Part shown: positions 1,717 to 62,787 of the stretch, piece after piece | Layout of the letters: every line of letters starts with the position of its first letter | Position numbering within the stretch: position 1 is the first letter of the stretch | Assembly: GCA_014360895.1 (NCBI GenBank) | Contig: JACIWQ010000002.1 | Coordinates: 6,629 to 70,628, forward strand | Direction of reading: 5' to 3' | Origin: Thermoflexales bacterium | GTDB taxonomy: Bacteria > Chloroflexota > Anaerolineae > B4-G1 > DUEL01 | Length of the DNA stretch: 64,000 nt | The notes under the pieces: model-generated | The model's input: the letters and a program-made list of their open reading frames with translations, nothing else | Told to the model about the DNA's origin: nothing | Databases searched by the model: none | Made by a program: the position numbers and the translations under genes

Positions 1717-2817
1717 TCACTCCAGGTCGTATGCCACCCCCAGTTCGGCGGCGATGGCCCGCAGGTCGGCCGCGACTTTGGGGTTCAACGGGATGCCCTC
1801 CCGCTGCCGTCGCTCCGTCTCTTCGTACTCCTTCTCCCCGTGGATGTAGATTCGGGTGGCGCCCTCCGCTTTCGGGGCGTTCTTCAGCCGTCGCTGCAGG
1901 TCGTCCATCGCGGCCTTGAACTCGTCCAGAGGCCGGAATCCGTCCACCCGCCAGGCCCCGAAGAAATGGCCCAGGTTGGCCGGCAGGGGCTTCCCGTCCG
2001 GCGTCTTCGGGTAGACCAGGTCGGCGTAGGCGGCGCCGGAGAGGACCGCGCAGAAGACATCCACCCAGAGGGCCAGGCCGTACCCCTTGTGTCCGCTGAG
2101 CAGTTCCCCTTCGCCGCCCAGTGGGAGGAGGCCGCCGCCGGCCCGATTCTTGAAGTTCTCCAGCACCCGACCGGCGTCTTCGGTGGCGATGCCGCGCTCA
2201 TCGGTGGCCCATCCCAGGGGCATGGGCTTCCCCAGCCGGTGGTAGACCTCCAGTTTGCCCCGGGGGACGGTGCTGGTGGCCATGTCCAGGACGAAGGGGC
2301 GCTCTTCTCCGGCGGGCGCGGCGACGGCAATAGGGTTGGTCCCCAGCATCGCGTTGCGGCCGAAGGTCGGCACGACCAGGACGTCCGCGTTGGTCATGGA
2401 CATGCCGATGCAGTCGTGCTCCAGAGCCATCATGGCGTAGTATCCGGCGATGCCGTAGTGATTGGAGTTGCGCACGGCGACGAATCCCGCGCCCACTTCC
2501 AGGGCCTTGCGGATGGCCATCTGCATCGCCCGGTAGGAGACGGGTTGTCCTAACCCGGCCCCGGCGTCTATGAGGGCGGTGGCTGGCGTCTCGTGCACCA
2601 CCTTCTCCTGAGGACGGGCGATCATCATGCCGGTCTGCAATCCCTCCACGTACCGGCGCAGTCGGGCCACGCCGTGAGAGTCAATCCCGCGCAGGTCCGC
2701 CGCCACCAGCACGTCGGCGGTAATCCGGGCATCCTCCTCCGGCACATCCAGTTTTCGGAAGACCCGCTCGCAGAACGCCCTGAGGGGCTCCGCCCAGACG
2801 CGTATCGCTTCTGCCAT
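1717..2817 (-). CDS. Ldh_2-family (malate/L-lactate/sulfolactate dehydrogenase-like) oxidoreductase
   Basis: Ldh_2 family motifs (GIDSHGV, NSNHYG, SGHKGYG). The start was moved to the internal ATG at 2817, which has a GGAGGT RBS. Confidence 0.75.
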   Translation of the reverse strand: MAEAIRVWAEPLRAFCERVFRKLDVPEEDARITADVLVAADLRGIDSHGVARLRRYVEGLQTGMMIARPQEKVVHETPATALIDAGAGLGQPVSYRAMQMAIRKALEVGAGFVAVRNSNHYGIAGYYAMMALEHDCIGMSMTNADVLVVPTFGRNAMLGTNPIAVAAPAGEERPFVLDMATSTVPRGKLEVYHRLGKPMPLGWATDERGIATEDAGRVLENFKNRAGGGLLPLGGEGELLSGHKGYGLALWVDVFCAVLSGAAYADLVYPKTPDGKPLPANLGHFFGAWRVDGFRPLDEFKAAMDDLQRRLKNAPKAEGATRIYIHGEKEYEETERRQREGIPLNPKVAADLRAIAAELGVAYDLE

Positions 2818-2819
2818 CT

Positions 2820-3290
2820 CTACCTCCGTTGGGGTTTGAGAATATCTACCAGCGGTGTTCCGCACCTGTACAAACGTATGGGATACTCCTTGCCTTTGAA
2901 AGAAATTCTCCGATTCCGTAAGTCTACGAGGTCCTGGGTATGGATCCGCTTGTACAAAATTACCGGCGTCAAATGGGCTACCTCAAGCGCAAACCTCCAG
3001 TCATTGGCGAGAACGTCAGCGGTGGCATGGAATTTCTTCACAATATCGCCGGTTTTTACCGTGCGGCTTTTCATTTCCACCACTACCCACCGGGGCCCAA
3101 CCGAATCCAGAATGACATAGTCCGGACGCTTCTCTTGCGGCGGAAAAGCCGCGCAGTTATCCGCGTCCACACAGACAAATCGGTATGGTTCCCCAACGGG
3201 CAGATCGCAGCCTTCTTTAGAGCACCGCGATACCAGACAGGGCGGGTTGCAATCCCGGTGAAGGCTCCGGAATTCGTCGGCGAGGCTCAT
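2820..3290 (-). CDS. Hypothetical small protein with an N-terminal Cys cluster (C-x3-C-x4-C-x4-C) and a PD-(D/E)xK-like core (ILD...VVVEMK); candidate nuclease partner of the upstream ATPase
   Basis: 156 aa ORF directly downstream of the ATPase gene, with a 12-nt gap. It lies in an AT-richer island. The nuclease assignment is inferred from motifs only. Confidence 0.5.
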   Translation of the reverse strand: MSLADEFRSLHRDCNPPCLVSRCSKEGCDLPVGEPYRFVCVDADNCAAFPPQEKRPDYVILDSVGPRWVVVEMKSRTVKTGDIVKKFHATADVLANDWRFALEVAHLTPVILYKRIHTQDLVDLRNRRISFKGKEYPIRLYRCGTPLVDILKPQRR

Positions 3291-3302
3291 CGGGGTGCTC
3301 CG

Positions 3303-4694
3303 CTATTCAGACTCTATCAGATCCAAGAGGCTATACGTCTGACTTCCAATGGCTTCCGCCACGCGGACAAATTCGTCTTCCGGGATGCCGAAGCCAGGTT
3401 CCGGAATAACTGGCTCAATGACCGAGCCGTCGCCCTCCATCCGGAAGAGATAGACACCGACCTCACCATAGCCCAGGCGGTCCCACTCCGGGTCAAAGCC
3501 CTCCGGCCGATGGCCCTTCTCCAGAGCCTCTCCCAGAAGCAAGTGGTTGCTAATCTGGTGAAGGATAATGTCGCTGTGGGTCGTACAAAGCACCCGCACG
3601 CCACACCGGACCAGCCGCACCATCAGGGTGGCAATGCGGCGCTGGTTCTCCGGATGGAGGTGGGCCTCCGGCTCTTCTATGATGAGCCAGTCGCCTCTGC
3701 GAAGAAGTCCTTTACGTAACCAGAGGTCTATCGGCGCCAATTCGGCCAAGCCGGAAGAAACGGCTGATAGAGGAATTCGCAGGCCCTGCTGGAAAACCAA
3801 AAGTTGTGGGTCTTCAGGAGACAACCAGTCCACGTATCCCTGCAAAATTTCTTCTAAAAGGGTCGTCACCGCCGTATCCTTTATCGGTTGCCAAACCCAG
3901 CGAGGGCCTCCCTCCAAAAGCGCCAAAAGAAAATCCCCTGCTACTCCAGTATAAGGAGTCGCTTGTATGGGCCTAATACCGATTTCTCGCCGGACCCAAC
4001 GGATAGCCATCGCCGCCAAAACTCTCCAGCCTTGCAGCAATCCAGCACGCGCGGCGGGAAAGTAGTAAATGCGCTCTGGCAACCCTAAAGAGTTCTGAAA
4101 GGCCCAGATGAGGTCCTCAGGGGTCAACTGTAAAGGGCGTCCGCGACGAGGCTTCGGAAGGCCGTAGAATTCCAGCGAAAGCCGATCAAAGCCACCCCAT
4201 TCCCATGACCACCCGCGTCCCTTTAACCAACCGCCTTGCACAACGAAGGGGGCTCTTTTTTCTTGTTCCCATCTAAACCCGATCTGGAGGTAATCCCCAC
4301 CCCGGCGCACCAGAGGCTCTATGGAATCCTGGCCAAAGTAATTGGGAATCTGATTCTCAAGCGAGGAGACGATTTGCCCGATGAATTGGGAAAGTTTCTC
4401 CCGAAAGGCCTCCTGCCCTGCTTCAGACAACATATCAGGCACAATTATTACCGGTTCAGTAGCGCTCTTACTGAGAGGCGATTTTGTAAGTAACCACAAC
4501 AGGTCCCAGATGTTTTCCCAACCTCTTACTTCCAGGGCCTTTATAAATAAATATGCCAGCGTCGCCGCGTACGTCTTCCCACTGCCGTTGGGACCGATGA
4601 AAACCGTCAGCGGGGCGAGGTCAAAACTCCCCTCTCGGATGGGACCGAAATCCTTCATCCAACATTGAATCCGAGGCCAGGTTTGCTCTTTCAT
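3303..4694 (-). CDS. ABC-type (AAA_15/AAA_21-like) ATPase, as found in Septu/PARIS/OLD-type defense systems
   Basis: Walker A FIGPNGSGKTY, Q-loop-like YYFPAAR, signature-like SSGLAE, Walker B WLIIEEPEAHLHP and H-loop TTHS. The start was moved to the ATG at 4694, which has a GAGGAG RBS. The longer ORF-track start would overlap the chelatase gene by about 120 nt. Confidence 0.7.
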   Translation of the reverse strand: MKEQTWPRIQCWMKDFGPIREGSFDLAPLTVFIGPNGSGKTYAATLAYLFIKALEVRGWENIWDLLWLLTKSPLSKSATEPVIIVPDMLSEAGQEAFREKLSQFIGQIVSSLENQIPNYFGQDSIEPLVRRGGDYLQIGFRWEQEKRAPFVVQGGWLKGRGWSWEWGGFDRLSLEFYGLPKPRRGRPLQLTPEDLIWAFQNSLGLPERIYYFPAARAGLLQGWRVLAAMAIRWVRREIGIRPIQATPYTGVAGDFLLALLEGGPRWVWQPIKDTAVTTLLEEILQGYVDWLSPEDPQLLVFQQGLRIPLSAVSSGLAELAPIDLWLRKGLLRRGDWLIIEEPEAHLHPENQRRIATLMVRLVRCGVRVLCTTHSDIILHQISNHLLLGEALEKGHRPEGFDPEWDRLGYGEVGVYLFRMEGDGSVIEPVIPEPGFGIPEDEFVRVAEAIGSQTYSLLDLIESE

Positions 4695-4740
4695 CTGTTT
4701 CTCCTCGCCGTCAACAGACCTTGTCAGGAATAACGCTGGG

Positions 4741-4840
4741 AAGTAGGACCGGAGGAAAATCCGCGCCTGTCCGCGTTCATCCGCGTCCGATTCCCGATGA
4801 GTCAATGAGCAGGCCTGGCGGCCTGCGCTACAATTGAACG
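4741..4840. repeat. Repeat family C copy (AAAATCYGCGC..GTCCGCGTTCATCCGCGTCC...GGCCTGGCGGCCTGCGCTAC)
   Basis: About 90-bp element, near-identical to the two tandem copies at 13112-13296. Confidence 0.6.
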
Positions 4841-6894
4841 TCCAGTTCCCGCCGCACTCGCTCCGCCAGCGCGTCGGCTCGCAGTTCCTCCAGCCGGTAG
4901 CAAGGGGCCTGGAGGTGCTCCGCCAGCGCCTGGGCCAGTCCCTGGTCAAAGGATTCGTGTTCCATGTTGATGACCACCGACCGGATGTGAGCCTGGGGGA
5001 AGAGTTCCGCGATGCGGTGGGCCTCCTCCTGGGGCGGCAGGTCGCTCATGGAGACGTTGCCGGCCCCGTCGGTGAGGAGCACCATCAGGGGCATCAGGTC
5101 GGGATGCTGACGGAGTTCGCGGGTGATGACTTCGTAGGCCAGGTTGAGCCCGGCGGAGAGGGGAGTTTTGCCCCCCACCGGGACGTCCTGAAGCGCTTTC
5201 TGGGCCCGGGTCACGCTACGGGTGGGCGGCAATACCACCCGGGCGCCGTTCTTCTGGAAGATGACCACGCCCACCCGGTCGCGGCGCTGGTAGGCATCGG
5301 TGAGCAGCGACATCACGGCCCCTTTGGTCGCCTCCATCCGCTCGGCGACCGCCATAGACCAGGACGCGTCCACCACGAAGAGGATGAGGTTGGCCATGCG
5401 GCGGACGCGCACTTTGCGGTGGTAGTCTTCCGGGCGGATGACCAGGGCGGGTCCACCGGGCCGACGACGACGGCTCTGGTGGGGCGCGGCGGCCCGCAGC
5501 GTGGCGTCAAAGGCCAGGTCGTCGGGATTGTCGGGGGAGGGGCGAGCTTGGATGTAGCGCCCGCGCCGCTGGTCGGTGCGGGTAGTGCTGCGCCGACCGG
5601 TCCCGGAGCGGGTCAGCCGGTCCAGGGGAGTATCCAGTCGTCGGGGAGTGAAGGACTCGCCGGTGGCAATTTTCTTTCCCCCTTCCCACCACTGCCCCTC
5701 GGAGGGCCACTGGGGAATGTGCTGGAAGACGGGTTCGCGCGGCCGCTCCCGTCCCTCAGAGGAGGGCATCTCCCCCGTCTCAACCTCTACGTGCGTTTTT
5801 TTTTCCTCCGGGAGGACCTCTTTGTCAACCACCTCCTCTGCCAGCGACGGCTCCTTTTGGGCCACCTGGACGCGGGCCTCGGCCAGCCGTTCCCCCAGAT
5901 TGTCCAGCGTCGCCTCTACCGGCTGGAGGGGGTGGCGACGGAGGCGGTGGGGCAGGGCCAGTTCGGCGGCCAGGAGGATGTCCCGGTCGGTGATGCGGGT
6001 GCGGCCTTCAAAGGCCGCGTTGGCCCGGGCCGTCTTCAGGATGACCATGTCGGGCCGGTGGCCGTCCACCCGCATCTCGGCCATCATCGCGGCGATGACG
6101 GCCAGGTCGCCCCGGGTGTGGCGCACCTGAGGCAGGAGTTGGCGGGCGCGGGCGATCTCCCGGGAAAGGGCCTCTTCGCGCGGCAACCATTCGGCGTAGA
6201 ACCCCTCGGGGTCGCTCTCAAAGGCCAGGTTGCGCTCCATAATGAGCATCCGCGCCGCCGGGTCGTGGACGCTGCGGATGTCCACGCAGAGGGCGAAGCG
6301 GTCCAGGAGTTGGGGGCGCAGGTCCCCTTCCTCCGGGTTCATCGTCCCGATGAGGATAAAGCGGGCCGGGTGGCTGAAGGAGATGCCCTCCCGCTCCACC
6401 ACGTTGACCCCCATCGCGGCCGCGTCCAGCAGGATGTCCACCACGTGGTCATCCAGCAGGTTGACCTCGTCCACGTAGAGGACGCCCCGGTTGGCGGCGG
6501 CCAGCACGCCCGGCTCAAAGTGGCGCTCCCCCTTCTGGATGGCCCGTTCAATATCCAGCGTGCCCACCACCCGGTCCTCCGTCGCGCTGACGGGGAGGTC
6601 CACAAATCGGGTACGGCGGCGGGCCCGGGGGAGTTCCTCCCCGGCCGCCGCCCGCTCTTTGCAGAGCGTGCACCAGGTGGCGGGCTGGTCGGGGTCGCAG
6701 GAGAACGGGCAATCGGCCACGACCTCTATCTCCGGCAACAGCGCAGCCAGGGCGCGGGCAGCGGTGGACTTGCCCGTCCCGCGTTCGCCGCGAATCAAGA
6801 CCCCTCCAATCTGGGGGTAGACGGCGTTCAGGACAAGCGCCCGGCGCATCAGGTCCTGGTTAACGATGGCAGTGAACGGAAAAATGGGCGGCAT
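4828..6894 (-). CDS. Mg-chelatase-like ChlI/ChlD fusion protein (AAA+ ATPase plus C-terminal vWA domain)
   Basis: N-terminus FPFTAIVNQDLMRRALVLNAVYPQIGGVLIRGERGTGKST matches the ChlI/BchI family. The C-terminal vWA domain carries DASWSM and a metal-ion-dependent adhesion site-like sequence. Confidence 0.8.
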   Translation of the reverse strand: MPPIFPFTAIVNQDLMRRALVLNAVYPQIGGVLIRGERGTGKSTAARALAALLPEIEVVADCPFSCDPDQPATWCTLCKERAAAGEELPRARRRTRFVDLPVSATEDRVVGTLDIERAIQKGERHFEPGVLAAANRGVLYVDEVNLLDDHVVDILLDAAAMGVNVVEREGISFSHPARFILIGTMNPEEGDLRPQLLDRFALCVDIRSVHDPAARMLIMERNLAFESDPEGFYAEWLPREEALSREIARARQLLPQVRHTRGDLAVIAAMMAEMRVDGHRPDMVILKTARANAAFEGRTRITDRDILLAAELALPHRLRRHPLQPVEATLDNLGERLAEARVQVAQKEPSLAEEVVDKEVLPEEKKTHVEVETGEMPSSEGRERPREPVFQHIPQWPSEGQWWEGGKKIATGESFTPRRLDTPLDRLTRSGTGRRSTTRTDQRRGRYIQARPSPDNPDDLAFDATLRAAAPHQSRRRRPGGPALVIRPEDYHRKVRVRRMANLILFVVDASWSMAVAERMEATKGAVMSLLTDAYQRRDRVGVVIFQKNGARVVLPPTRSVTRAQKALQDVPVGGKTPLSAGLNLAYEVITRELRQHPDLMPLMVLLTDGAGNVSMSDLPPQEEAHRIAELFPQAHIRSVVINMEHESFDQGLAQALAEHLQAPCYRLEELRADALAERVRRELDVQL

Positions 6895-14233: not shown

Positions 14234-14301
14234 AAACCACAAAGACACGAAGACATAAACCCATTCATCGTGTCTTTGTGCCTTCGCGGTGACCATCCGA
14301 A

Positions 14302-47682: not shown

Positions 47683-49455
47683 TCACCGCCAATTCGGTTG
47701 GCCGTCATAGAAAGAATTATCGGTCAGCTTGCCCAGACCGGTGCCGTCGGCATTCGTCACATAGATCTCGGAATCGCCGTCCCGATCGGAGGCAAAGGCA
47801 AGAAACCTCCCATCGGGCGACCACGTCGGATCGGTATCACGCGCCGGGTTGGTGATCAACGGCCACAAGGTGCTCAGACCTTCGCACGAGGGAACCATCG
47901 CCCAAATATCATAGTCGGTAGCGGACGTTCCACCCCGGTTTGAGACAAAGGCCAGGAACGGCAGCCCGCTCCGCCTCTCCCGCGTCGGCGACCAGGCCGG
48001 GGAGAAATCCATGAACGTTTCGTCGGATACCTGCACCTGGCACAGGCCGCTCCCGTCGGCGTTCACCAGATAGATGCCCCCGTTTCCATCGCGGCAGGAA
48101 CTGAACGCGATCCGGTTTCCCATCCAACTATGCGCGATGTCTATGCAGGAGCCATCGCCGGTCAGCCGCCTCACACCGCTCCCGTCGGCGTTCATCACAT
48201 AAAGCGCCTCGTTGAGGAATCCGCCACCCTCCCGGTTGGACGTGAATACAATCCGGCTTCCATCGGGGGACCAGATCGGCCGATAGTCGGCTGCCGGATT
48301 GCGGGTCAGGTTGACCGGATGGCTGCCATCGGCACCCATAACATAGACTTCCAAATTGCCATCCCTATCGGAAGTGAAAGCAATCCGGGTTTTGTCAGGA
48401 GACCAGACAGGGAGCGTATCCCTGGCTGGGTTGTTGGTCAACCGGACGGCCTCGCCCCCGGTAGAGGCCATGGCATAAATCTCCTCATTGCCGTCCCGAT
48501 TGGAGACGAAAACGATCTCCCAACTGGGAGGAGGATTTACGCCGGATACGGGAACCAGTGGAGGACCCTCGTGCCAGACGCCCCAGGTATCATCGTCCTC
48601 GTACAGTTCGTATTGCCCGATCCGAAGGCCTTTTTCGTAGCGCTGAATCACGGCATAGTAGACCGGGTATCCTTCAGGAACTACCGAGAGGGCAGAATCG
48701 CCCACAAGTGCGTGCCACCGATGCTCGGTGGCCGCTCCGAGATTCCTCGGCCAGTACCAGGGATAGTAGAGCAGGTACACCACAGGGCGATCAAGACGGC
48801 GAATGGCGATTCCGCCCGCGCCAGATCGGAGCGGCTCCTCAATAGTCGGAGCCTCAGCCACCGAGGGGAACTCTCTGACCATTACCTCTACGGTTTCCGC
48901 CGGCCCTACGGCCCGTCCCAGCCTTCCTGCTGCTGGCCCCTGGGGTACAGGCGGTGTCCCTCCCCCCAGCGGTTCGTAGGAGCAGGTCAGGATCAGATCG
49001 CACATGCACAGAGTGTTCCACGAGTATGTCTGACCATAGACGTAGACAATGGCCTCCGGGCTTTCCTGATAGCCCTCTGGCTGCCAGATCATCTCCTCAT
49101 AGTTCTTCACGCACGTATAGCCGGCCAGGTAGTATCCTGTGGGCGGCGACGGACAGGTCTGAGGGCACCCCTCGCAGGGGGGACAGGGCGTGGGAGTGAG
49201 ACTGGAGGGAAGGCCCGGCGCGGCGAACGGTCCTGATGGGGTTGATGTAGGAGTTGCAAACGTAAGGGGTTGCGTTGGATTTGTGGTCGCTACTGGTTGT
49301 GATTGCGAGTGTGGCGGTTTCGGCACAGATGTGGAGGTCAGCGTCGGCCCTATGGTTGCGGGGGGAGATGGTGTCACACCCGCAGTGGAAAAGAACTCAC
49401 AACTGCCGATGACAAACAAGACAATGATCAGGACCACCTCAACCGGAGCGTTCAT
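47683..49455 (-). CDS. Secreted TolB-like (PD40/WD40-like beta-propeller) protein with a Thr/Pro-rich linker
   Basis: Signal peptide, then repeated xxxPxWSPDG PD40 blades. Start chosen at ATG 49455. Confidence 0.6.
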   Translation of the reverse strand: MNAPVEVVLIIVLFVIGSCEFFSTAGVTPSPPATIGPTLTSTSVPKPPHSQSQPVATTNPTQPLTFATPTSTPSGPFAAPGLPSSLTPTPCPPCEGCPQTCPSPPTGYYLAGYTCVKNYEEMIWQPEGYQESPEAIVYVYGQTYSWNTLCMCDLILTCSYEPLGGGTPPVPQGPAAGRLGRAVGPAETVEVMVREFPSVAEAPTIEEPLRSGAGGIAIRRLDRPVVYLLYYPWYWPRNLGAATEHRWHALVGDSALSVVPEGYPVYYAVIQRYEKGLRIGQYELYEDDDTWGVWHEGPPLVPVSGVNPPPSWEIVFVSNRDGNEEIYAMASTGGEAVRLTNNPARDTLPVWSPDKTRIAFTSDRDGNLEVYVMGADGSHPVNLTRNPAADYRPIWSPDGSRIVFTSNREGGGFLNEALYVMNADGSGVRRLTGDGSCIDIAHSWMGNRIAFSSCRDGNGGIYLVNADGSGLCQVQVSDETFMDFSPAWSPTRERRSGLPFLAFVSNRGGTSATDYDIWAMVPSCEGLSTLWPLITNPARDTDPTWSPDGRFLAFASDRDGDSEIYVTNADGTGLGKLTDNSFYDGQPNWR

Positions 49456-49653
49456 TTTTGTCCGCCAGTACATCGTTCCCCCTCCCTATCTCACATTATA
49501 CTTCCACGACCCCATGACGTCAATGGGTTTGAACTGGACTTTACTCCCATCTCGTGTTGGAGGGGCTGGAAAGAGGCTTGACATTCTCCCCTTCCAATGG
49601 TATAAGCATCCGTTGAGGGTTCCCCCGACGGCCCGGAATCTGAGGACAGAGGA

Positions 49654-50595: not shown

Positions 50596-52205
50596 ACGCA
50601 GAGAGGGGATTCACCACGAAGACCCGAAGGCACAAAGGCAAATTCATCGTTCTTCTCCTCGTGTCTTTGTGCCTCTGTGGTTTCATCACCGCCTGCACCC
50701 CCATTGGCCCCGTGCGCGTCACTCTGGTCGCCGACGGGCAGACCCGCACCCTCACCACCGACGCCCAGACGGTGGGGGAACTCCTGGCGCGGGCAGGAAT
50801 CACCCTGGACGAAGATGACCGCGTCGTCCCACCGGAGACTGTCCTCCTGACCGACGGGATGACTGTCCGGGTGGTGCGGGTGGAGGTCCGCACCGAGACG
50901 GTCCGGCAGACCCTCCCCTACGGCCGGGAGACGGTGCGGGACGCGACGATCCCGGTCGGGCAGACCCGCCTACTGCGGGCCGGGGTGAACGGCGTGGAGG
51001 AATTGACCTACGTCATCACCCTGGAGGACGGCGTGGAGGTGGAGCGGCGCCTGGCCCGACGGATCACCGTCCAGGAGCCCCAGAACGAGATTCTGCTGGT
51101 GGGGGCGCGGGAGGAGGTGACGGCGGTGCCCATCTCCGGCACCGTCACCTACCTCTCCGCCCACAACGCCTGGGTGATGCGAGGGACCACCGGCAGCCGC
51201 CGCCGACTGACGGCGACCGGCGACCTGGACGGCCGGGTCTTTGACCTCTCGCCCGACGGCTCCCAACTCCTCTTCACCCGCACGGCCACCGAGACGGGCG
51301 TCCTGAACACCCTCTGGATGATAGACACGCTCACCCCGGGGGCCGAACCGGTCCGGCTGCCGGAGCAGAATGTCCTCTGGGCGGCATGGTCGCCGGACGG
51401 TGCGTGGATCGCGTACTCCACCGGCGCGCCGCGCGAGGCGCCGCCGGGCTGGGAGGCCGCCAACGACCTCTTCGTGGCCCGTCCCCAGGCGGACGGTCGG
51501 CTCCGGGACCGCCGTCGGGTGCTGGGGCCGTCGGCGGGCGGCGCCTACGGCTGGTGGGGGACGACCTTCGCCTGGGCTCCCCCGGGGGAGAACGGGCCGT
51601 CCACCCTCCTGGCCTACGCCCGCGCCGACGAAATCGGCATCGTGGACCTCGCCGCCCGTAAGCCGGAGGCCGTCCCGCTGGTGCGGTTCCCGCCGTTCCG
51701 CACCTACGCTCCCTGGGCCTGGGTCCCGACCCTCTCCTGGTCGCCGGAGGGAGCATTTCTGGCGACCGTCCTCCACGGCCCCTCGCCCACCGGGGAGGAG
51801 CCGGAGGATAGTCCCGTCTTTGACATTTACGCCTTAGGCGTGGTGACGACTTCGGAAACCCTCCTGCAGGCGAAACTGGTCCCGGAGGCGGGGATGTGGG
51901 CGGCGCCGTCGTTCTCGCCGGAGGGCGACCTCATCCTCTTCGGACGGGCCCGGGCCCCCTATGCCTCCCCGACCAGCACCTACGACCTCTACCGGATGGA
52001 CCGGGACGGGTCGGACCGGCGGCGGCTGTTCCCGCAGGACGACCGGGAGCCCGGGCTGGAGTATCCGGGGGTGGCCTGGGACCCGGCGGGCGGGCGGGTA
52101 CTGGTGGTCTATCGGGGCGACCTCTGGCTGGTGACGACCGACGGGCAGGCCCGCCGGGTGACCGAGGACGGCGCCATCACCCTGGCTCGCTGGCAGGGAG
52201 GGTAG
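50592..52205 (+). CDS. Lipoprotein with a DUF348/G5-like N-terminal region and a C-terminal TolB-like beta-propeller
   Basis: Lipobox ITAC. A G5-like segment (TETVRQTLPYGRETVRDATIPVGQTRLLRAGVNGVEELTYVI). WSPDG-type blades. Confidence 0.55.
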   Translation: MNAERGFTTKTRRHKGKFIVLLLVSLCLCGFITACTPIGPVRVTLVADGQTRTLTTDAQTVGELLARAGITLDEDDRVVPPETVLLTDGMTVRVVRVEVRTETVRQTLPYGRETVRDATIPVGQTRLLRAGVNGVEELTYVITLEDGVEVERRLARRITVQEPQNEILLVGAREEVTAVPISGTVTYLSAHNAWVMRGTTGSRRRLTATGDLDGRVFDLSPDGSQLLFTRTATETGVLNTLWMIDTLTPGAEPVRLPEQNVLWAAWSPDGAWIAYSTGAPREAPPGWEAANDLFVARPQADGRLRDRRRVLGPSAGGAYGWWGTTFAWAPPGENGPSTLLAYARADEIGIVDLAARKPEAVPLVRFPPFRTYAPWAWVPTLSWSPEGAFLATVLHGPSPTGEEPEDSPVFDIYALGVVTTSETLLQAKLVPEAGMWAAPSFSPEGDLILFGRARAPYASPTSTYDLYRMDRDGSDRRRLFPQDDREPGLEYPGVAWDPAGGRVLVVYRGDLWLVTTDGQARRVTEDGAITLARWQGG

Positions 52206-53163: not shown

Positions 53164-53622
53164 GTGATTCACGGCGTAGAACTCAAACCCCTGGTCACCC
53201 ACACCGACGAGCGCGGCTTTTTCCGCGAGATTATCCGGGCCAGCGACCCCATTTTCCCCGAGGGCTTCGGCCAGTGGAGCCACACCATGAGCCACACGGG
53301 TGTCGCCAAGGCCTGGCACATCCACCACCGCCAGACCGACTGGTGGTATGTGGCCTGCGGGACGGTGCGGGCCGCCCTCTACGATGCCCGCCCCGACTCC
53401 CCGACCTACGGACAACTGGAGGAGTTCCTGCTGGGGGACGGCCATCCCCCCGTTGTTCTGAAAATCCCCCCGGGGGTCGCCCACGGCTACCGGGTCCTCC
53501 AGGGCCCGGCCCACATTTTCTACATCACCTCCCACGAGTACGACGGGACCGACGAGGGCCGCATCCCCCACGACGACCCGACCATCGGCTACGACTGGAC
53601 CCGCTGGCCGGAGATTAAATAA
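53164..53622 (+). CDS. dTDP-4-dehydrorhamnose 3,5-epimerase-like cupin (RmlC family)
   Basis: RmlC-like His dyad region (KAWHIHHRQTDWWYVACGTVRAALYD). GTG start. Confidence 0.7.
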   Translation: MIHGVELKPLVTHTDERGFFREIIRASDPIFPEGFGQWSHTMSHTGVAKAWHIHHRQTDWWYVACGTVRAALYDARPDSPTYGQLEEFLLGDGHPPVVLKIPPGVAHGYRVLQGPAHIFYITSHEYDGTDEGRIPHDDPTIGYDWTRWPEIK

Positions 53623-53681: not shown

Positions 53682-53936
53682 GTGATGATGTCCGTCCTCA
53701 CGAAAATCCAGATTCTCCGCGCTTTAGACAGGTTGCCACCGGACAGTTTGCACATCGTGGCCGAGTTTGTGGAATTCCTGCGCGCAAAGGCCGAGGCCTC
53801 TGCACCGTCAATGGCTCCGCCCCAAAGGGTGGTGAAACTGGGCGGCCTGTGGGAAGGCTATTCGTTTTCAGAAGAAGAGATCCGCGCTGCACGGCGGGAA
53901 GCGTGGACCGGTTTAGGTCGGGGGTTAGATGGCTGA
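53682..53936 (+). CDS. Antitoxin-like small protein (VapB-type partner of the downstream PIN)
   Basis: 84 aa ORF overlapping the PIN gene start. The true start is ambiguous between GTG 53682, ATG 53685 and ATG 53688. Confidence 0.55.
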   Translation: MMMSVLTKIQILRALDRLPPDSLHIVAEFVEFLRAKAEASAPSMAPPQRVVKLGGLWEGYSFSEEEIRAARREAWTGLGRGLDG

Positions 53937-54333
53937 GTATGTGGCGGATACCCATGCCCTGGTCTGGCACTTGACCAACGACTCGCGTTTATCTCCCATA
54001 GCGCGTGCCGCCTTCACGGATGCGGACAACGGGCGTGGAGTTATCTGGATCCCCGGTGTGGTGCTGGTGGAGATTGTGTACCTGGTGGAAAAGGCGCGAC
54101 TACCGGGATCCATGAGCGCTCAGGTTTTGGACCTGGTGGACCCTCCCAGAGACAACTATCTTATTGTCCCCTTAGATGCTGGAGTGATCCGGACTTTACA
54201 AACCATTGACCGGGAAATCCTCCCGGATATGCCTGATCGCATCATCGCGGCCAGCGCCAAGTACCTGGGCCTCCCCTTACTATCCAAAGATTTGGCAATG
54301 GCGGGGATCCCCGGCCTATCGGTTGTCTGGTAA
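53929..54333 (+). CDS. vapC: PIN-domain toxin (VapC family)
   Basis: MAEYVADTHALVWHL ... PLDAGVIRTLQTI ... DRIIAASAKYLGLPLLSKD has the PIN acidic residues. Confidence 0.75.
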   Translation: MAEYVADTHALVWHLTNDSRLSPIARAAFTDADNGRGVIWIPGVVLVEIVYLVEKARLPGSMSAQVLDLVDPPRDNYLIVPLDAGVIRTLQTIDREILPDMPDRIIAASAKYLGLPLLSKDLAMAGIPGLSVVW

Positions 54334-54350: not shown

Positions 54351-54668
54351 TTGCAGGAGGCAATCTTTGTGATTCACGGCGTAGGACTCAAGCCCCTGGT
54401 CACCCACACCGACGGGCGCGGCTTTTTCCGCGAGATTATCCGGGCCAGCGACCCTATTTTCCCCGAGGGCTTCGGCCAGTGGAGCCACACCATGAGCCAC
54501 ACGGGTGTCGCCAAGGCCTGGCATATCCACCACCGCCAGACCGACTGGTGGTATGTGGCCTGTGGGACGGTGCGGGCCGCCCTCTACGATGCCCGCCCCG
54601 ACTCCCCGACCTACGGACAACTGGAGGAGTTCCTGCGGCTACGACTGGACCCGCTGGCCGGAGATTAA
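54351..54668 (+). pseudogene. Truncated duplicate of the rmlC-like gene (5' about 285 bp, then the last about 35 bp, internal deletion)
   Basis: Nucleotide identity of about 97% to 53161-53455 and then to 53590-53622. It reads as IHGVGLKPLVTHTD...TYGQLEEFL//RLRLDPLAGD. Confidence 0.65.
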
Positions 54669-54760
54669 ATAACAAACCACGAAGACACGAAGACGCGAAG
54701 TTGGTGATTGTTCTTTGTGTCTTCGCGCCTCCGTGGTAAAATTCTTGTTAGGAGGCACTG

Positions 54761-55504
54761 ATGAGTGCTGGAAGAAAATACGCTCAACCGCCGGTTGTGG
54801 AAGCAGTTTGCCAGTTCGTTCTGTCAGCCGATACCCCATGGGACATAACAGTCCCTGGTCTTTTTTACGAGAAACTCAAAGACGAATTTCCTTATCATGA
54901 AACTCGCATTTATCGGGGAGTCGGAATTCGCGTGCCGGAGCAGGATCAACCTCAGTTTCTGTTCGGCGAAGAGCCCGTTTTGGCCCTGTTTTCGGAAAGC
55001 CGGACAATGCTGGTTCAACTGGGCCCTCGCGTTTTAACGGTGAACTGCCTGAAGTCCTATCCTACATGGCCCGTTTTCCGTTCGAAAATTGAAAGAGCGT
55101 GGTTCAGCCTGAAAGAAGTTCTGGAAATCAAGGGGTTGGAACTGGTCAGGTTGCAATACATCAACCAAATCAAAATCCCGGAGTTCCCAGAGGATTTGCA
55201 GGACTGCTTCACCATCTACCCTCATTTTGGGCCGCTTCCAGTGTCCAATATCGTTATGTTTATCGTGGGGGCCTTGCTCACTTTCCACGATGGCCGCGAC
55301 CGCTGCCGGCTACAACTCAATAATCCTTCTGAGGAAGAGCGGCAAACGGTCATCCTGGACATTGAGTACTCTCTGACCCGGCCTGGGGACCTGGGCCTGG
55401 AAGCGATTCCCCAGTGGCTGGAAGAAGCGCACGACCGAATTGAAAATATTTTTGAAAGTTCCATCACCGATCGGCTCAGAACTACATTTCAGCTGGAGGC
55501 GTAA
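54761..55504 (+). CDS. TIGR04255-like conserved hypothetical protein
   Basis: N-terminus KYAQPPVVEAVCQFVL resembles the PPIVEA.C.F.F start of the TIGR04255 family. 247 aa. AT-richer composition than its flanks. Confidence 0.5.
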   Translation: MSAGRKYAQPPVVEAVCQFVLSADTPWDITVPGLFYEKLKDEFPYHETRIYRGVGIRVPEQDQPQFLFGEEPVLALFSESRTMLVQLGPRVLTVNCLKSYPTWPVFRSKIERAWFSLKEVLEIKGLELVRLQYINQIKIPEFPEDLQDCFTIYPHFGPLPVSNIVMFIVGALLTFHDGRDRCRLQLNNPSEEERQTVILDIEYSLTRPGDLGLEAIPQWLEEAHDRIENIFESSITDRLRTTFQLEA

Positions 55505-56083
55505 ATGGGAGCCTTAACCGATTATCCGGTCACAGGGCGGCAAGATGTCTCCTGTATGTTTCCTTTTCCATACAAGCGTAGAATCACCCCCTCTGGATCG
55601 TTAGCACAAATGGCGGTTGCCTTCTCCCATTCTGCCCCTGAAATCTGGCTTCCTTCGGGGAGATGGCAGGGAAAAGCGCGCCCCTCTCCGGATTATGATC
55701 TCTTGAACCAGCGGTATGTGCAATTTTTCCGCATCCAAAGCGCTTTGGCAGAAGTGGACGGAATGGGCATAAAAATCGTCAAACGTGACCAGGTTCAGGA
55801 CTATCTTAGGCGTTATCCCGAGATGATAGACCTGCTCCCTAAGGTAGCCCGTCTGGTTCAAGAGCAACTGCCGGATGCCCGGCTGGTTCTGACGGTTTAC
55901 CAAGACCCTGAAGAAGAAGACGAGTATCTAACGATATATGCCCGTTTTGCCAAATACGATAAGTGCTCTCTGGAAAGGGTTCGGATCACCCGGTCCAGAT
56001 ATCGGGATATGTTAAGAGATTGCCAGGGATGGATTTTCCTGACTACTGACTTCCAAACATCAGACAGGCCCTATGCCGTTTGA
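55505..56083 (+). CDS. Hypothetical protein
   Basis: Its ATG immediately follows the TAA of the upstream gene. The start may be internal (MGIKIVKRDQ...). No recognisable domain. Confidence 0.4.
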   Translation: MGALTDYPVTGRQDVSCMFPFPYKRRITPSGSLAQMAVAFSHSAPEIWLPSGRWQGKARPSPDYDLLNQRYVQFFRIQSALAEVDGMGIKIVKRDQVQDYLRRYPEMIDLLPKVARLVQEQLPDARLVLTVYQDPEEEDEYLTIYARFAKYDKCSLERVRITRSRYRDMLRDCQGWIFLTTDFQTSDRPYAV

Positions 56084-56438
56084 TTGGAGTGAGTTTCTTG
56101 CGGTAGCCCGGCATCTGCAAGGCCAATCAGGACCTGGCTATTCAGAAGAGGCCGCGAATCGCACGGCAATCAGTCGGGCTTATTACGCCGTCTTTGGACG
56201 CGTCTGTGAATTTGCTGAAGCGAACCTCGGCTTCCGACGGGCCGGAAGCGGGAGAGATCACCGGTCACTCAGAGAGCACCTCTATCATCAGGGAGGGCAA
56301 TGGCCTGCCATCGCTGACGATTTGAACGATCTGAGACAGTGGCGCAATTTGTGTGACTATGGGCCTGATGTCCAAAATCTGCAGATTCTGGTGATGGATG
56401 CGATCCGACGGGCGGAGCAGATCTTGCGACAAATTTAA
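56073..56438 (+). CDS. HEPN-like small protein
   Basis: SRAYYAVFGRV helix and an Rx4H motif (RSLREH). It overlaps the upstream ORF by 11 nt. Confidence 0.45.
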   Translation: MPFDWSEFLAVARHLQGQSGPGYSEEAANRTAISRAYYAVFGRVCEFAEANLGFRRAGSGRDHRSLREHLYHQGGQWPAIADDLNDLRQWRNLCDYGPDVQNLQILVMDAIRRAEQILRQI

Positions 56439-56456
56439 ACCGAGGAGAACTGACTT

Positions 56457-57866
56457 ATGAACAACAAATCATGGCCAGATATTCTTCAGGGAATCATTGC
56501 GCTGAAAGAGAACCAGGTGCACATCTTGGACGAATCCCGTCTGCGCGGCCCGGCGCTGGACGCGCTGGTCTACGCCGCCGTCTTCGGCGGGGCGGAAGAG
56601 CGGGCCACCGCCCGCGCGCTCCTCTGGGAACTGGGCCAGGCCCTGGGGATTCGGCCCGCGTCCATCCACGACCTCTATATAGCCCGGGGGCGCGGGGAGA
56701 CTTCCACGAACTGGACCGTCCCCGCGATGAACCTGCGCACGCTGACCTACGACATGGCCCGCGCCGTCTTCCGCGCCGCGCGGGCCCGAAACGTCGGCGC
56801 GATGATTTTTGAGATCGCCCGCTCCGAAATCGGCTATACCGACCAGCGACCCGCCGAATACGCCACCGTCATCATCGGCGCGGCGATCCGCGAGGGCTAT
56901 CGGGGCCCCCTCTTCCTCCAGGGCGACCACTTCCAGGTGAGCGCGAAAAAGTACGCCACCGCCCGGGAGGCCGAAATCGGCGCGGTGGAAGACCTCATCC
57001 GTGAAGCTATCGCCGCCGGATTCTTCAACATTGACATAGACACCTCCACCCTGGTAGACTTGAGCCAGCCGACGGTCCCGGAGCAGCAGCGGACGAACTA
57101 CGAAGTCTGCGCCCACTTCACCCGTTTCATCCGTAGCCTCCAGCCGGAGGGGGTGACCATCTCCGTCGGTGGCGAGATCGGCGAGGTGGGCGGCCACAAC
57201 ACCACCGAGGAGGAACTGCGGGCCTTCATGGACGGCTACAACAGCTCCCTGCCCCTGGGGATGGCCGGCGTCAGCAAACTGAGCATTCAGACCGGCACCT
57301 CCCACGGCGGCGTCGTCCTCCCCGACGGTACCCTGGCCCGGGTCAAGATTGACTTTGACACCCTGGAGCGGCTCAGCCGGGTGGCCCGGGAAGAGTACGG
57401 CCTGGCAGGCGCGGTTCAGCACGGCGCCTCCACCCTCCCGCCGGAGGCGTTCCACAAGTTCCCGGAGGTCGGCACGGCCGAAATTCACCTGGCGACCGCG
57501 TTCCAGAACCTCCTCTACGACCATGCCCTCTTCCCCGCTGACCTTCGGGAGGAGATATACGCCTACCTGCGGAAAGAGCACGTCGCCGACTGGAAGGAAG
57601 GCAAGACCGAGGAGCAGTTCCTCTACGAGGCGCGCAAAAAGGCCCTGGGGCCCTTCAAGCGGGAACTCTGGAACCTGCCGGAGGAGGTCCGGGCGACCAT
57701 TGGGCAGGAACTGGAGGCCCAGTTCATTTTCCTCTTTGAGCAGTTGGGGGTAACGGATACGGCCGACCTGGTCGCCCGTCACGTTCGGCCGCCGGAAATC
57801 CACAAGACCCCCGCCGACTTCGGCGCCGAGAAAGCCCTCTCCATCAGCGAGGGCCTGGCGGACTGA
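56457..57866 (+). CDS. Class II aldolase (fructose/tagatose-bisphosphate aldolase family, long form)
   Basis: LSIQTGTSHGGVV and VQHGASTLPPEAF correspond to the class II FBA TSHG and HGGSG regions. Confidence 0.55.
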   Translation: MNNKSWPDILQGIIALKENQVHILDESRLRGPALDALVYAAVFGGAEERATARALLWELGQALGIRPASIHDLYIARGRGETSTNWTVPAMNLRTLTYDMARAVFRAARARNVGAMIFEIARSEIGYTDQRPAEYATVIIGAAIREGYRGPLFLQGDHFQVSAKKYATAREAEIGAVEDLIREAIAAGFFNIDIDTSTLVDLSQPTVPEQQRTNYEVCAHFTRFIRSLQPEGVTISVGGEIGEVGGHNTTEEELRAFMDGYNSSLPLGMAGVSKLSIQTGTSHGGVVLPDGTLARVKIDFDTLERLSRVAREEYGLAGAVQHGASTLPPEAFHKFPEVGTAEIHLATAFQNLLYDHALFPADLREEIYAYLRKEHVADWKEGKTEEQFLYEARKKALGPFKRELWNLPEEVRATIGQELEAQFIFLFEQLGVTDTADLVARHVRPPEIHKTPADFGAEKALSISEGLAD

Positions 57867-60482: not shown

Positions 60483-61703
60483 CTACATCTCCACCACCAG
60501 TTCCTTCGGCAGCGGGGTCAGGTTGTGGACCTGCCCCTCCTCATCTATCCACAGGACGTCCTCCAGGCGGATGCCGTAGCCGTGATCGGGGTCGTAGAGG
60601 CCCGGCTCCACGGTGAAGACGTGGCCCGGTTGCAGGGTGCGGGTGTTACTGGGGACGTCGGTGAAGACGGGCTCTTCGTGGATGGCCAACCCCAGACCGT
60701 GCCCGATGAGGTGGTTGAAGCCGACCTCCGTCTCCGGGTTCTCCGCGATTGTCGGGTAGCCCTGCTGCGCGAAGAAGGCGCAGGCCACCTGCTGGAGCCG
60801 TCGCGCCTCCACCCCCACCCTGGCCTCGGCGACCACCGCGTCCAGACAATCCGCCACGTCCCGATACACCTTCTCCACCTCCGGCGGCGCGTACCCCAGG
60901 CAGAAGGTCCGGGTCAGGTCAAAGTAGTAGCCGCCGGCCCGCCGGGGGAAGATGTCGTAGACGATGGTCCGACCCAGGCGGATGGGGTCGTCCGGACGGC
61001 CCTGGCTGTGGGGGATGCCCGCATCTCGTCCGATGGCGAAGATGAATCCCTCGGGGGATTCCAGCCGCCGCTGGGCCAGCAACTGGTAGACGTAGTCCTT
61101 TACGTGACCAATCGTCAACGGGGTACCGTCGTCGGTGATGAGGGTTTCGTCCTTCACCCGGTGGCGGCGCAGAAAGGCCACCGTCTCCTCCACCACTTCG
61201 CAGGTCAGACGGGCGACCTCCCGGATCCGGGCCACCTCGTCGGCGTCCTTCGTCGCCCGGGCGACTTCCAGGAGGTTCTCGTCGTACTCGCCCCGCACCC
61301 GAATCTCCGGCAGCGCCTCCGCCAGCGCGGAGAGGAGGAGGTAAGCTTGCCCCTGGTCGGCCATCCCGTAAAAGCCCACGTCGCCCCGCACGCCCAGGTC
61401 GGCGAAGATGCGGCGGTAGAGTTCCACCGTTGCCTTCAGCCGGTCGCCGGTTTCACGGAGGATTTCGGTGAAGCGGTAGCGGGCCATATTGACCAGGGGG
61501 AGGCCGCTGGCGACCGCCTCATCCCGCTCAATCGGGGAGTGGATGAAGACAGGGGTCTCCCCCCGTTTCTTGACCACGATTCCCTGGGTCACGGCGGCGC
61601 CATTGAGCAGGTAAACCAGAGAGGGATTCCCATATGTACGGCCGGAGACGACAATGGCATCCAGTCCCCGGGCTTCCATTAAGGCATCTATATCGCGTTT
61701 CAT
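60483..61703 (-). CDS. M24-family metallopeptidase (Xaa-Pro aminopeptidase-like)
   Basis: Pita-bread fold metal ligands (HLIGHGLGLAIHEEP, VEPGLY). Confidence 0.8.
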   Translation of the reverse strand: MKRDIDALMEARGLDAIVVSGRTYGNPSLVYLLNGAAVTQGIVVKKRGETPVFIHSPIERDEAVASGLPLVNMARYRFTEILRETGDRLKATVELYRRIFADLGVRGDVGFYGMADQGQAYLLLSALAEALPEIRVRGEYDENLLEVARATKDADEVARIREVARLTCEVVEETVAFLRRHRVKDETLITDDGTPLTIGHVKDYVYQLLAQRRLESPEGFIFAIGRDAGIPHSQGRPDDPIRLGRTIVYDIFPRRAGGYYFDLTRTFCLGYAPPEVEKVYRDVADCLDAVVAEARVGVEARRLQQVACAFFAQQGYPTIAENPETEVGFNHLIGHGLGLAIHEEPVFTDVPSNTRTLQPGHVFTVEPGLYDPDHGYGIRLEDVLWIDEEGQVHNLTPLPKELVVEM

Positions 61704-61706
61704 CGG

Positions 61707-62579
61707 TTATTTCTCCTCCGGTCCGGGCAGGAGCACGCCCTGGCGGGCGTAGATTCGGGAGGGGCGAAACCGTCCCACCCATTCTCCCGTTGCCTTGCGT
61801 TCCTGAAAGGTCTTTTGGACTTTATGGAGTTCCAGTTCTTCCAGAACGCGGGCCCGTTCCCGCTCCGCGTTCTCTATTCGCTCCCGGGCAATGGCGACAT
61901 ACGTCTCGCTGATGTCTATTCCGAAAAAATCGCACCCCAGAAGTTTCGCGGCAACCAATGTGGTCCCGATACCGGCGTATGGGTCCAGTACAACCCCCTT
62001 CCGGTCGTCCAGAACGGAGTAGATACAGCGGACGGGGAGTTCAATAGGAAACGGGTTCGGATGGCGAGGGTCCCTTTCAGGCCGGATTTCCCACACCGAG
62101 GTCAGAAGGGCGTGGCGGGAATTCAGTTCGGCGCCGATGGTATCTCCGGGGAAACGGGGCTTGCAGAGCCAGTAGATCCGTTCATCCACCTGCCAGAACC
62201 GCCAACCCCGGAGATTGGCCGCAATCTTCCGATACCAGATGATTTCCTGCCGCAGAATCCACCGGGAGTGACTGACCCATTCGTAGGGGTGGATAAGCCG
62301 ACCCCTAAACCAGCGAATTTTATGGTTATAAAAAAGAGACCCTCCGGGGCGGGTGACCCGATATATCTCATTTAACACCGCGACCTGTTCTTCCTGGTAG
62401 GTCTCTTCGTCTTTCCGGTCGGTTGCCGCATCATATACCACCCGGTCTACCAACCAACCCCGATCTCGCTCCCCTTTGTTGTATGGAGGCGAAGTGACGG
62501 TGACGTCAAAAAGGTCATCCGGCAGCGTCCGCAGGACCTCCAGGGCGTCCCCGACCACAACGGTGTTCAACTCCGGCAT
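61707..62579 (-). CDS. DNA methyltransferase (N4-cytosine/N6-adenine, beta class) with SPPY catalytic motif
   Basis: FDVTVTSPPYNKG is motif IV; TRPGGSLFYN is the AdoMet region. The start was moved to ATG 62579, which has a GGAGGAGG RBS. Confidence 0.75.
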   Translation of the reverse strand: MPELNTVVVGDALEVLRTLPDDLFDVTVTSPPYNKGERDRGWLVDRVVYDAATDRKDEETYQEEQVAVLNEIYRVTRPGGSLFYNHKIRWFRGRLIHPYEWVSHSRWILRQEIIWYRKIAANLRGWRFWQVDERIYWLCKPRFPGDTIGAELNSRHALLTSVWEIRPERDPRHPNPFPIELPVRCIYSVLDDRKGVVLDPYAGIGTTLVAAKLLGCDFFGIDISETYVAIARERIENAERERARVLEELELHKVQKTFQERKATGEWVGRFRPSRIYARQGVLLPGPEEK

Positions 62580-62787
62580 AAAGCCTCCTCCCTCAGACGG
62601 GCCAGATATACTGCAAAGTCCCGGGTCAAATGAGGTTGAAACTGCTCCCACTCCCGGCTCAAGAACAGCAGGCGCACCTTGGGATCATCTTGATAGTCGC
62701 GGAAGGTGAAACTCGCGCTGCGCAGGAACAGGCCTACTGGTCGGTTCCCCTCTTGTCGGGGAGGAGCGGCACGCTCCCCGTAAACCC

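Follow-up and report, generated by a model that had tools for sequence, protein, structure and literature searches.

Based on a computational analysis of a 64,000-nucleotide stretch from a Thermoflexales bacterium (assembly GCA_014360895.1, contig JACIWQ010000002.1, positions 6,629 to 70,628; hereafter the window, whose numbering is used unless a locus is named), we propose that three coupled genes at 54700-56440, here denoted A, B and C, constitute a stand-alone copy of a widespread, mobile three-gene cassette that operates as a toxin-antitoxin (TA)-like defence module of the abortive-infection type. C, a small HEPN protein, would be the effector, B its neutraliser and A a regulator. On balance we lean towards this assignment. 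It is built on the anatomy of the cassette, the folds and motifs of its products, its co-conservation and genomic contexts, and its foreign composition, all of which were observed directly.

The three genes lie on the forward strand in an island of lowered GC content. GC is 0.49-0.53 across approximately 54600-56400 compared to 0.60-0.70 in both flanks, and the island proper (54700-56440, 1740 nt, GC 0.515) is the second lowest among 623 sliding windows of equal size over the whole window (mean 0.645, standard deviation 0.039), the minimum of 0.513 starting at 54801, within the island. GC at third codon positions (GC3) is 0.57, 0.52 and 0.54 in A, B and C, respectively, against 0.85-0.90 in the rmlC-like, aldolase and DHODH genes. 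The marked GC drop described in an earlier sequence-only reading of the window is hereby confirmed, and both statistics, far below those of the neighbouring genes, agree with the horizontal origin suggested there; as a compositional signature, the low GC of the cassette points to foreign acquisition. Gene A (247 aa, 54761-55504) has a Shine-Dalgarno sequence, AGGAGG (54750-54755), located 5 nt 5' of the ATG at 54761 in an intergenic leader (54673-54760) that also holds a palindrome resembling repetitive extragenic palindromic (REP) elements at 54678-54727. The A/B junction reads GGAGGCGTAAATG, with the TAA stop of A (55502-55504) abutting the ATG of B (192 aa, 55505-56083) at 55505, while the ATG of C (121 aa, 56073-56438) at 56073 precedes the stop of B (TGA, 56081-56083), an overlap of 11 nt. 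Direct reading of the letters thus bears out the co-orientation and the two coupled junctions reported earlier. The stop codon of C occupies 56436-56438, and the ATG of an aldolase gene follows 18 nt further on, at 56457. A scan for sigma-70-like promoters upstream of A returned none, although the organism may use other signals. Equally, the cassette region contains no Rfam match at E<=0.1, i.e. no indication of an RNA antitoxin or structured RNA, no tRNA, and no tandem or otherwise meaningful repeats.

Central to the proposal is gene C, for which an AlphaFold2 (AF2) model calculated from a homologue alignment (mean predicted local distance difference test score, pLDDT, 93; predicted template modelling score 0.86) displays an all-helical bundle with helices at residues 5-15, 25-51, 61-73, 77-96 and 103-120. 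In a Foldseek comparison to the Protein Data Bank (PDB), the top 19 matches are all HEPN-family proteins (probability 0.96-1.0, with E-values of only ~0.02-0.3), including 1wwp, 1wty, HepT (7bxo/5yep/6m6w), AF0298 (2hsb, TM-score 0.71, rmsd 2.7) and the HEPN domain of sacsin. The family profile likewise detects 9xbd, a 'HEPN domain-containing protein' (E 3.2e-6), and AF0298 (E 0.05). Recognition by the Pfam family PF05168 is less uniform: the window protein has no match at E<=0.1, 5/10 family members do match (best E 2e-4), and the orthologue at locus L022 carries a weak precomputed PF05168 match. C is also the only cassette product with a match in PHROGs (phrog_5176, of unknown function, E 3e-11), and C and its relatives show a weak similarity to the PADLOC candidate models HEPN_IX and PDC-M05B (E 3e-6 to 0.05), far under the family level. 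Together, the model and the profiles support assignment of C to the HEPN fold, and to its AF0298-like HEPN-T subgroup. The structural check that was set for the 121-aa protein, whether it adopts a HEPN fold, hence came out in favour of the HEPN claim of the sequence-only reading; the accompanying claim of an Rx4H motif, RSLREH, did not stand. R64 and H69 of this stretch are unconserved in 70 family members and situated in an inserted helix (61-73), and we reject it as coincidental.

Instead, the conserved residues indicate a different catalytic arrangement. Twelve positions are 100% invariant in 70 distinct C-family sequences (F3, W5, L9, A27, R30, S34, R35, Y37, H63, R91, D95 and Y96), and the N-terminus, MPFDW, is taken to be invariant. 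The motif that closes helix 3 (77-96) is R91-N-L-C-D95-Y96, in which the histidine of the canonical Rx4-6H motif is absent, and H63 starts the inserted helix 61-73 in the AF2 model. In alignments, the counterparts of the R-x3-D-Y motif are LREESDY in 2hsb and LRNRSDY in 9xbd. For AF0298-like HEPN-T proteins, it has been described that the arginine of the Rx4-6H motif is kept and the histidine absent (with D instead in several cases, Table 1 of PMC3710099), that a second conserved histidine is found in an insert between helices 2 and 3, and an alternative RNase site has been proposed on this basis (Anantharaman et al. 2013, PMC3710099). H63, R91, D95 and Y96 are placed exactly in this manner, with the motif where helix 3 ends and the alternative histidine in the helix 2-3 insert. 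The putative active site of C, as judged from conservation and the model, is accordingly composed of H63 together with R91, N92, D95 and Y96.

Gene B, which is identical to NCBI protein H5T61_00795, has no match in Pfam, NCBIfam, PADLOC-DB v2.0.0 or PHROGs and no sequence relatives in the PDB, as anticipated from the earlier description of a protein without recognisable domain. A search with the single sequence detects close relatives only, and a profile of the C-terminal ~125 residues recovers 176 clusters, none of which has a Pfam domain. The AF2 model (120 sequences) is bipartite. Residues 1-60 are predicted to be disordered (pLDDT 41-55), in line with the poor conservation of the N-terminal tail (residues 1-65, 55505-55699), and residues 64-185 form a confident core (pLDDT ~96) with the order helix-helix-helix-strand-strand-helix-strand. 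This conserved core (residues ~66-192, 55700-56083) carries the motifs VYxDPExxDxYL, YxR and GWxxLTTDF. On present sequence and modelling evidence, B is a new family with an alpha/beta core that lacks a convincing structural or sequence relative.

Gene A, in contrast to B, belongs to a family with a curated model, although one without an assigned function. Its match to NCBIfam TIGR04255 is full-length, with residues 6-243 covering model positions 1-251 of 252, and scores 123.6 bits, above the curated cut-off of 30 (E 1.2e-35), so that the TIGR04255-like identity proposed earlier holds. The protein is standalone and acidic (isoelectric point, pI, 4.9). A phmmer search over 1.84 billion representatives at 50% identity identifies 2485 relatives at E<=1e-3, and nearly all of the best 150 of these are ~245 aa in length, with clear domain fusions absent. 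Sequence relatives are absent from Pfam, PADLOC and the PDB, and A together with 11 family members returned no matches in PADLOC-DB v2.0.0. PDB entry 9hnh, a designed repeat protein, was considered as a relative and rejected as a spurious match; similarly, an internal duplication in A, or kinship among A, B and C, was rejected (hhalign probability <=0.5%). The window copy departs from the family at four positions that are conserved in >90% of members, namely G130R and R132Q (both in the LRYIN motif), a P to S and a Y to C exchange, suggesting that the constraint on A may be relaxed in this genome. The Y to C exchange is shared with the closest relatives, L007 and L010, which retain G130 and R132.

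The three genes are strongly co-conserved, as assessed by scanning hidden Markov models of A, B and C over six-frame open reading frames (ORFs) of all fetched loci. Contigs with homologues of C or B carry either the whole trio or a B-C pair. Among 80 metagenomic loci seeded with A alone, the 55 with >=950 nt of downstream sequence were counted as informative, and 53 of these encode A-B-C (one as A-B-C-C), the remaining two being A-B; the trio also recurs across phyla. This answers positively the question raised with the earlier prediction, whether the trio is co-conserved elsewhere. C is frameshifted in one of the two A-B loci, L060; in the other, L111 (626-2568), A is followed by a divergent B and an unrelated 173-aa protein that replaces the HEPN protein. 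From the other direction, C is directly downstream of B in every B-seeded genome locus with sufficient room, except in the decayed L026, and the B-C spacing is -11 nt in 24/43 distinct pairs and <=13 nt in the others.

Hosts of the cassette include Chloroflexota, Thermus (in a chromosomal island and on a megaplasmid), Acidobacteria, Tectomicrobia, Thermodesulfatator, Methylacidiphilaceae, Fraserbacteria and one archaeal-binned metagenome-assembled genome (MAG), and the cassette stays at a GC content of ~50% where that of the host is 57-70%. In the GenBank phage and plasmid collections, the only cassette copy is that on the T. brockianus megaplasmid, besides two distant C-like phage matches. 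Contigs of related Thermoflexales/Anaerolineae are syntenic with the window, with the order MNT-HepT-rmlC-A-B-C-aldolase-SSB (the HepT gene being uncalled in L007), which indicates that the cassette has been inherited within this clade. In the window, the rmlC-like gene (a dTDP-sugar epimerase) is partly duplicated, at 53164-53622 and 54369-54672, with VapBC at 53682-54333 in between; the second copy comprises the first 268 nt (98% identical) and the last 37 nt (100% identical), with the internal 154 nt missing. As rmlC is directly followed by A in L007, L009 and L010, VapBC and the rmlC fragment represent a later insertion in the window.

The cassette is also modular, and its parts are lost asymmetrically. 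Lengths of B are bimodal, at ~125 aa and ~185 aa. Long, tailed B proteins are always preceded by A, and tail-less B proteins are found in A-less B-C pairs (L001, L018-L021 and L025), of which L001 harbours a tandem B-C-B-C array (L001:1911-3468) with paralogues that are 70-79% identical. The two architectures appear to be joined by L028 (252-698), where a tail-less B opens with MGKKCANPPVVEEV, the conserved N-terminus of A; from its sequence, this looks like the scar of an in-frame deletion that removed A along with the B tail. Because the presence of A tracks that of the tail, with the L028 scar in agreement, A would work through the B tail. In L026 (6890-7600, a Candidatus Fraserbacteria MAG), B is intact and C is reduced to MPFDWRD* plus the last ~25 codons, followed by a remnant of the Res N-terminus (MSLLVDNPIINSPFEEPT). 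Seven viral contigs from IMG/VR (L030-L036) encode a short B at ~5900-6300 without A or C, in 5/7 cases with >=0.9 kb of downstream sequence available. Identity of these phage proteins to cellular long B proteins, at 53-97%, is confined to the core (~residues 70-180), their neighbours include phrog_1221 and phrog_20074, and a phrog_67 methyltransferase is located directly upstream in L031 and L035. Conversely, a C of this family without B was not seen among the loci scanned. An antitoxin and its toxin would be expected to behave in this way, the former surviving alone and being captured by phages and the latter never standing alone, and the orphan B core of phages may function as an anti-defence decoy antitoxin. 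Apart from these, five other IMG/VR loci (L038 and L040-L043) hold distant C-like HEPN-T genes of the phrog_5176 type at ~5944-6375 in P2-like phage regions, preceded by an unrelated 256-284-aa protein with a weak TPR signal rather than by B, and adjoined by baseplate genes; this arrangement may be another two-gene HEPN-T module.

Clustering of the ORFs around the cassette returned two dominant neighbour families, both confirmed by Pfam, N6_N4_Mtase (~960 aa) and ResIII (~940 aa), i.e. the Mod and Res subunits of Type III restriction-modification (R-M) systems. Mod is directly upstream of A in 18/55 A-seeded loci (gap -16 to +24 nt), Res is directly downstream of C in 16/36, and both flank the cassette in 10/27, generating five-gene mod-A-B-C-res operons. 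Overall, about one third of the loci are embedded in Type III R-M. The position of the cassette relative to mod and res varies (L004, L022 and L029), being after Mod-Res in L004 and before in L022. One A-B-C-C arrangement (L087:2155-4749) is situated inside a mod/res operon. Other copies neighbour a Type ISP enzyme and GmrSD (L117), an Eco57I/MmeI-type methyltransferase and a PLD-SNF2 helicase (L058), or a CHAT-NACHT-TPR protein (L120), and the Thermus copy L014 belongs to an integrase/Prim-Pol island, an integrative element. On the T. brockianus megaplasmid pTB1, VapBC, a methylase, pAgo and Cas6 are encoded nearby. There, a C homologue that is intact and starts with GTG (L124:10309-10701, NZ_CP016313), missing from the distributed gene table, is located downstream of genes annotated as 'TIGR04255 family protein' (A) and 'hypothetical protein' (B), with VapBC directly upstream of A as in the window. 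The 64-kb window itself contains no Mod or Res homologue. The claim of a defence/TA hotspot nevertheless fits, as family members often adjoin restriction or defence genes and the window copy is located beside MNT-HepT and VapBC. In L127 (1930-8558), Mod is accompanied by a TIGR04255 protein that is only distantly related to A, by two small proteins of unknown nature and by a UvrD-type helicase; considering also L111, cassettes headed by TIGR04255 proteins may form a family with variable partners.

From these observations we envision the following mechanism. C, a small HEPN-T protein, would dimerise into a metal-independent RNase that uses R91 and H63. B, which is translated just before C, would hold C inactive through binding and not through AMPylation. 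A, the accessory first gene, would dock on the B tail as a sensor or regulator deciding on the release of C. Where the cassette is placed between mod and res, it could act as a second-line safeguard coupled to restriction, as the embedding in about one third of the members suggests by analogy with PrrC. A more specific version, in which the cassette guards the Type III R-M system itself, A monitoring Mod/Res or phage anti-restriction factors and freeing C via the disordered B tail once restriction is subverted, and phages responding with a protective methyltransferase and a stolen B core as decoy, would make the cassette a functional counterpart of PrrC-EcoprrI built from three proteins; this version is in our opinion rather doubtful.

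Several points weigh against a TA-like defence module. RNase activity and toxicity of C and its neutralisation by B are all steps that we infer, and the role assigned to A is guesswork. C is devoid of the canonical Rx4-6H histidine, and no demonstrated RNase activity was found in the literature for AF0298-type HEPN-T proteins. B is close to neutrality (pI 6.5 for the core) and lacks the helix-turn-helix or ribbon-helix-helix DNA-binding domain that type II antitoxins typically carry. Hot-spring lineages are abundant in the metagenome sample, so that loci cannot be counted as phylogenetically independent, and R-M-embedded members correspond to 7/33 A clusters at 70% identity. Copies are also found among housekeeping genes (L018, L091, L097 and L106). 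Finally, given the four substitutions in A, including R132Q, the window copy may be partly compromised.

Alternative explanations must be considered against the same evidence. Type VII HepT-MntA systems, and HEPN-MNT pairs with HEPN-T proteins in general (PF05168; AF0298/2hsb and the TTHA protein 1wwp), resemble the cassette in that a ~120-aa HEPN protein is encoded second in a small overlapping operon, and the closest structures of C are indeed 2hsb, 1wwp and HepT. It could therefore be envisaged that the cassette is a cryptic system of this type, where Tyr96 of C is nucleotidylylated by B, as a degenerate minimal nucleotidyltransferase (MNT), or by A, as a new transferase; Y96 is invariant in the C family, and the equivalent tyrosine was mutated by the depositors of 9xbc. 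However, the cassette differs in that its upstream partner is not an MNT and in the additional third gene, TIGR04255. The characteristic motifs (G[GS] and DxD/E) are absent from B and the hhalign probability is 0.07%, so that the sequence-only reading was right that the trio has no MNT partner. As B has neither nucleotidyltransferase motifs nor similarity, neutralisation by AMPylation is unlikely, and we consider a cryptic type VII system highly improbable. If the cassette were instead an accessory or regulator of Type III R-M without toxicity, for instance a HEPN complex that binds RNA or nucleotides and tunes the expression or activity of Mod/Res, the window copy being an orphan whose R-M genes were lost, this would account for its insertion between mod and res, where stop and start codons overlap at many loci, as well as for the distant A homologue directly after Mod with other downstream partners in L127. 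The missing canonical histidine is compatible with such a role too, as some HEPN domains are non-catalytic binders (PMC3710099). Yet approximately two thirds of the copies, including those of four syntenic Chloroflexota genomes, have no adjacent R-M, B-C pairs and B-C-B-C arrays are found far from any R-M, and placement relative to mod and res varies between, before and after. In addition, the invariant R/H/D/Y set argues for catalysis, and orphan B cores in phages would be difficult to account for if the cassette had a housekeeping regulatory role; together, this renders the option unlikely.

A purely selfish addiction cassette without anti-phage role, maintained through post-segregational killing and hitch-hiking in mobile islands and R-M operons, would share the TA-like coupling of the genes with the defence module that we favour. 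It would also agree with the vicinity of MNT-HepT and VapBC in the window and of VapBC on pTB1, the copies on a megaplasmid and an integrative element, and the foreign GC content everywhere. On the other hand, the recurrent fusion to Type III R-M operons, the restriction and defence neighbours and the acquisition of the B core by phages are features encountered more often in defence systems, and the third gene, A, is needless for simple addiction; we hold selfish addiction to be improbable. Lastly, the cassette could be an inert, decaying remnant in this particular genome, judging from the four exchanges in A, the lack of a detected promoter-like site upstream and the missing R-M partner in the window. 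This is scarcely credible to us considering that three full-length ORFs are present with ribosome-binding sites and coupling intact, that B and C retain every invariant residue, and that intact orthologous cassettes are located at the same site in >=3 related genomes, which speaks for retention over time.

Comparisons to characterized systems place the cassette close to, and yet apart from, other HEPN-based TA and abortive-infection modules. PrrC in EcoprrI, a Type Ic R-M system, is likewise a HEPN RNase encoded inside an R-M operon, a feature of the cassette family, and has been proposed to be a latent second line of defence (PMC3710099). PrrC differs, however, in its ABC-ATPase regulatory domain and its association with Type I enzymes, whereas C is a 121-aa single domain with A and B as separate regulators and Type III enzymes as neighbours; the window copy moreover has no R-M nearby. 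RnlAB and LsoAB also combine a HEPN effector with a dedicated protein partner, and a phage neutraliser exists, T4 Dmd acting against RnlA/LsoA, comparable to the orphan B cores here. In contrast, RnlA is a large multi-domain toxin whose gene lies upstream of that of the antitoxin, these systems lack a third component, and neither RnlB nor Dmd is related to B in sequence or fold. AbiV has been grouped with AF0298-like HEPN-T proteins, sharing the alternative conserved histidine (PMC3710099), and a preprint describes it as an active RNase with an essential N-terminal region that belongs to a type III TA system (bioRxiv 10.1101/2024.05.05.592566). C has the same type of histidine and the invariant N-terminus MPFDW; the antitoxin of AbiV is an RNA, whereas no RNA family or repeat was found at the cassette and the partners are others. 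A general remark on the clustering of HEPN-T genes with R-M operons dates from 2013 (PMC3710099).

No description of the three-gene cassette was found in the open-access literature searched, including recent defence-discovery papers, although a prior description elsewhere is possible; the same searches produced no mention of TIGR04255 or PDB 9XBD, and literature searches turned up no built-in fail-safe module for Type III R-M. The cassette is hence apparently undescribed, akin to HEPN-based TA and abortive-infection modules and equipped with two uncharacterised partner families. This supports the suggestion of a possibly undescribed HEPN-containing three-gene system, for which we infer a defence or toxin function. 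HEPN RNases that partner proteins keep in check recur in bacterial immunity. Upon confirmation, the cassette would represent a new defence system of several genes that is common among thermophiles, it would annotate two orphan families, and it would extend the PrrC paradigm of restriction with an RNA-cleavage backup to Type III enzymes. Should the guard version be true, it would provide the first function for TIGR04255 (~2500 clusters at 50% identity), a new antitoxin fold, and the first demonstrated RNase role for an AF0298-type HEPN-T protein outside MNT pairs. The apparent phage capture of the B core alone offers a candidate defence/counter-defence pair. Should C prove non-catalytic, the cassette would instead point to an unknown level of regulation in Type III R-M.

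Two further features of the window concern its composition and intergenic regions. The REP-like palindrome, consisting of CACGAAGACACGAAG and an inverted partner, occurs in intergenic regions at 14238-14280, 50615-50671 and 54678-54727, the last of which is positioned just 5' of A, and the half-site CACGAAGACACGAAG is present 8 times in the window compared to 0.09 expected. Other stretches of lowered GC (0.55-0.57) are found at ~2800-4800, 49200-49600 and 61600-62600.

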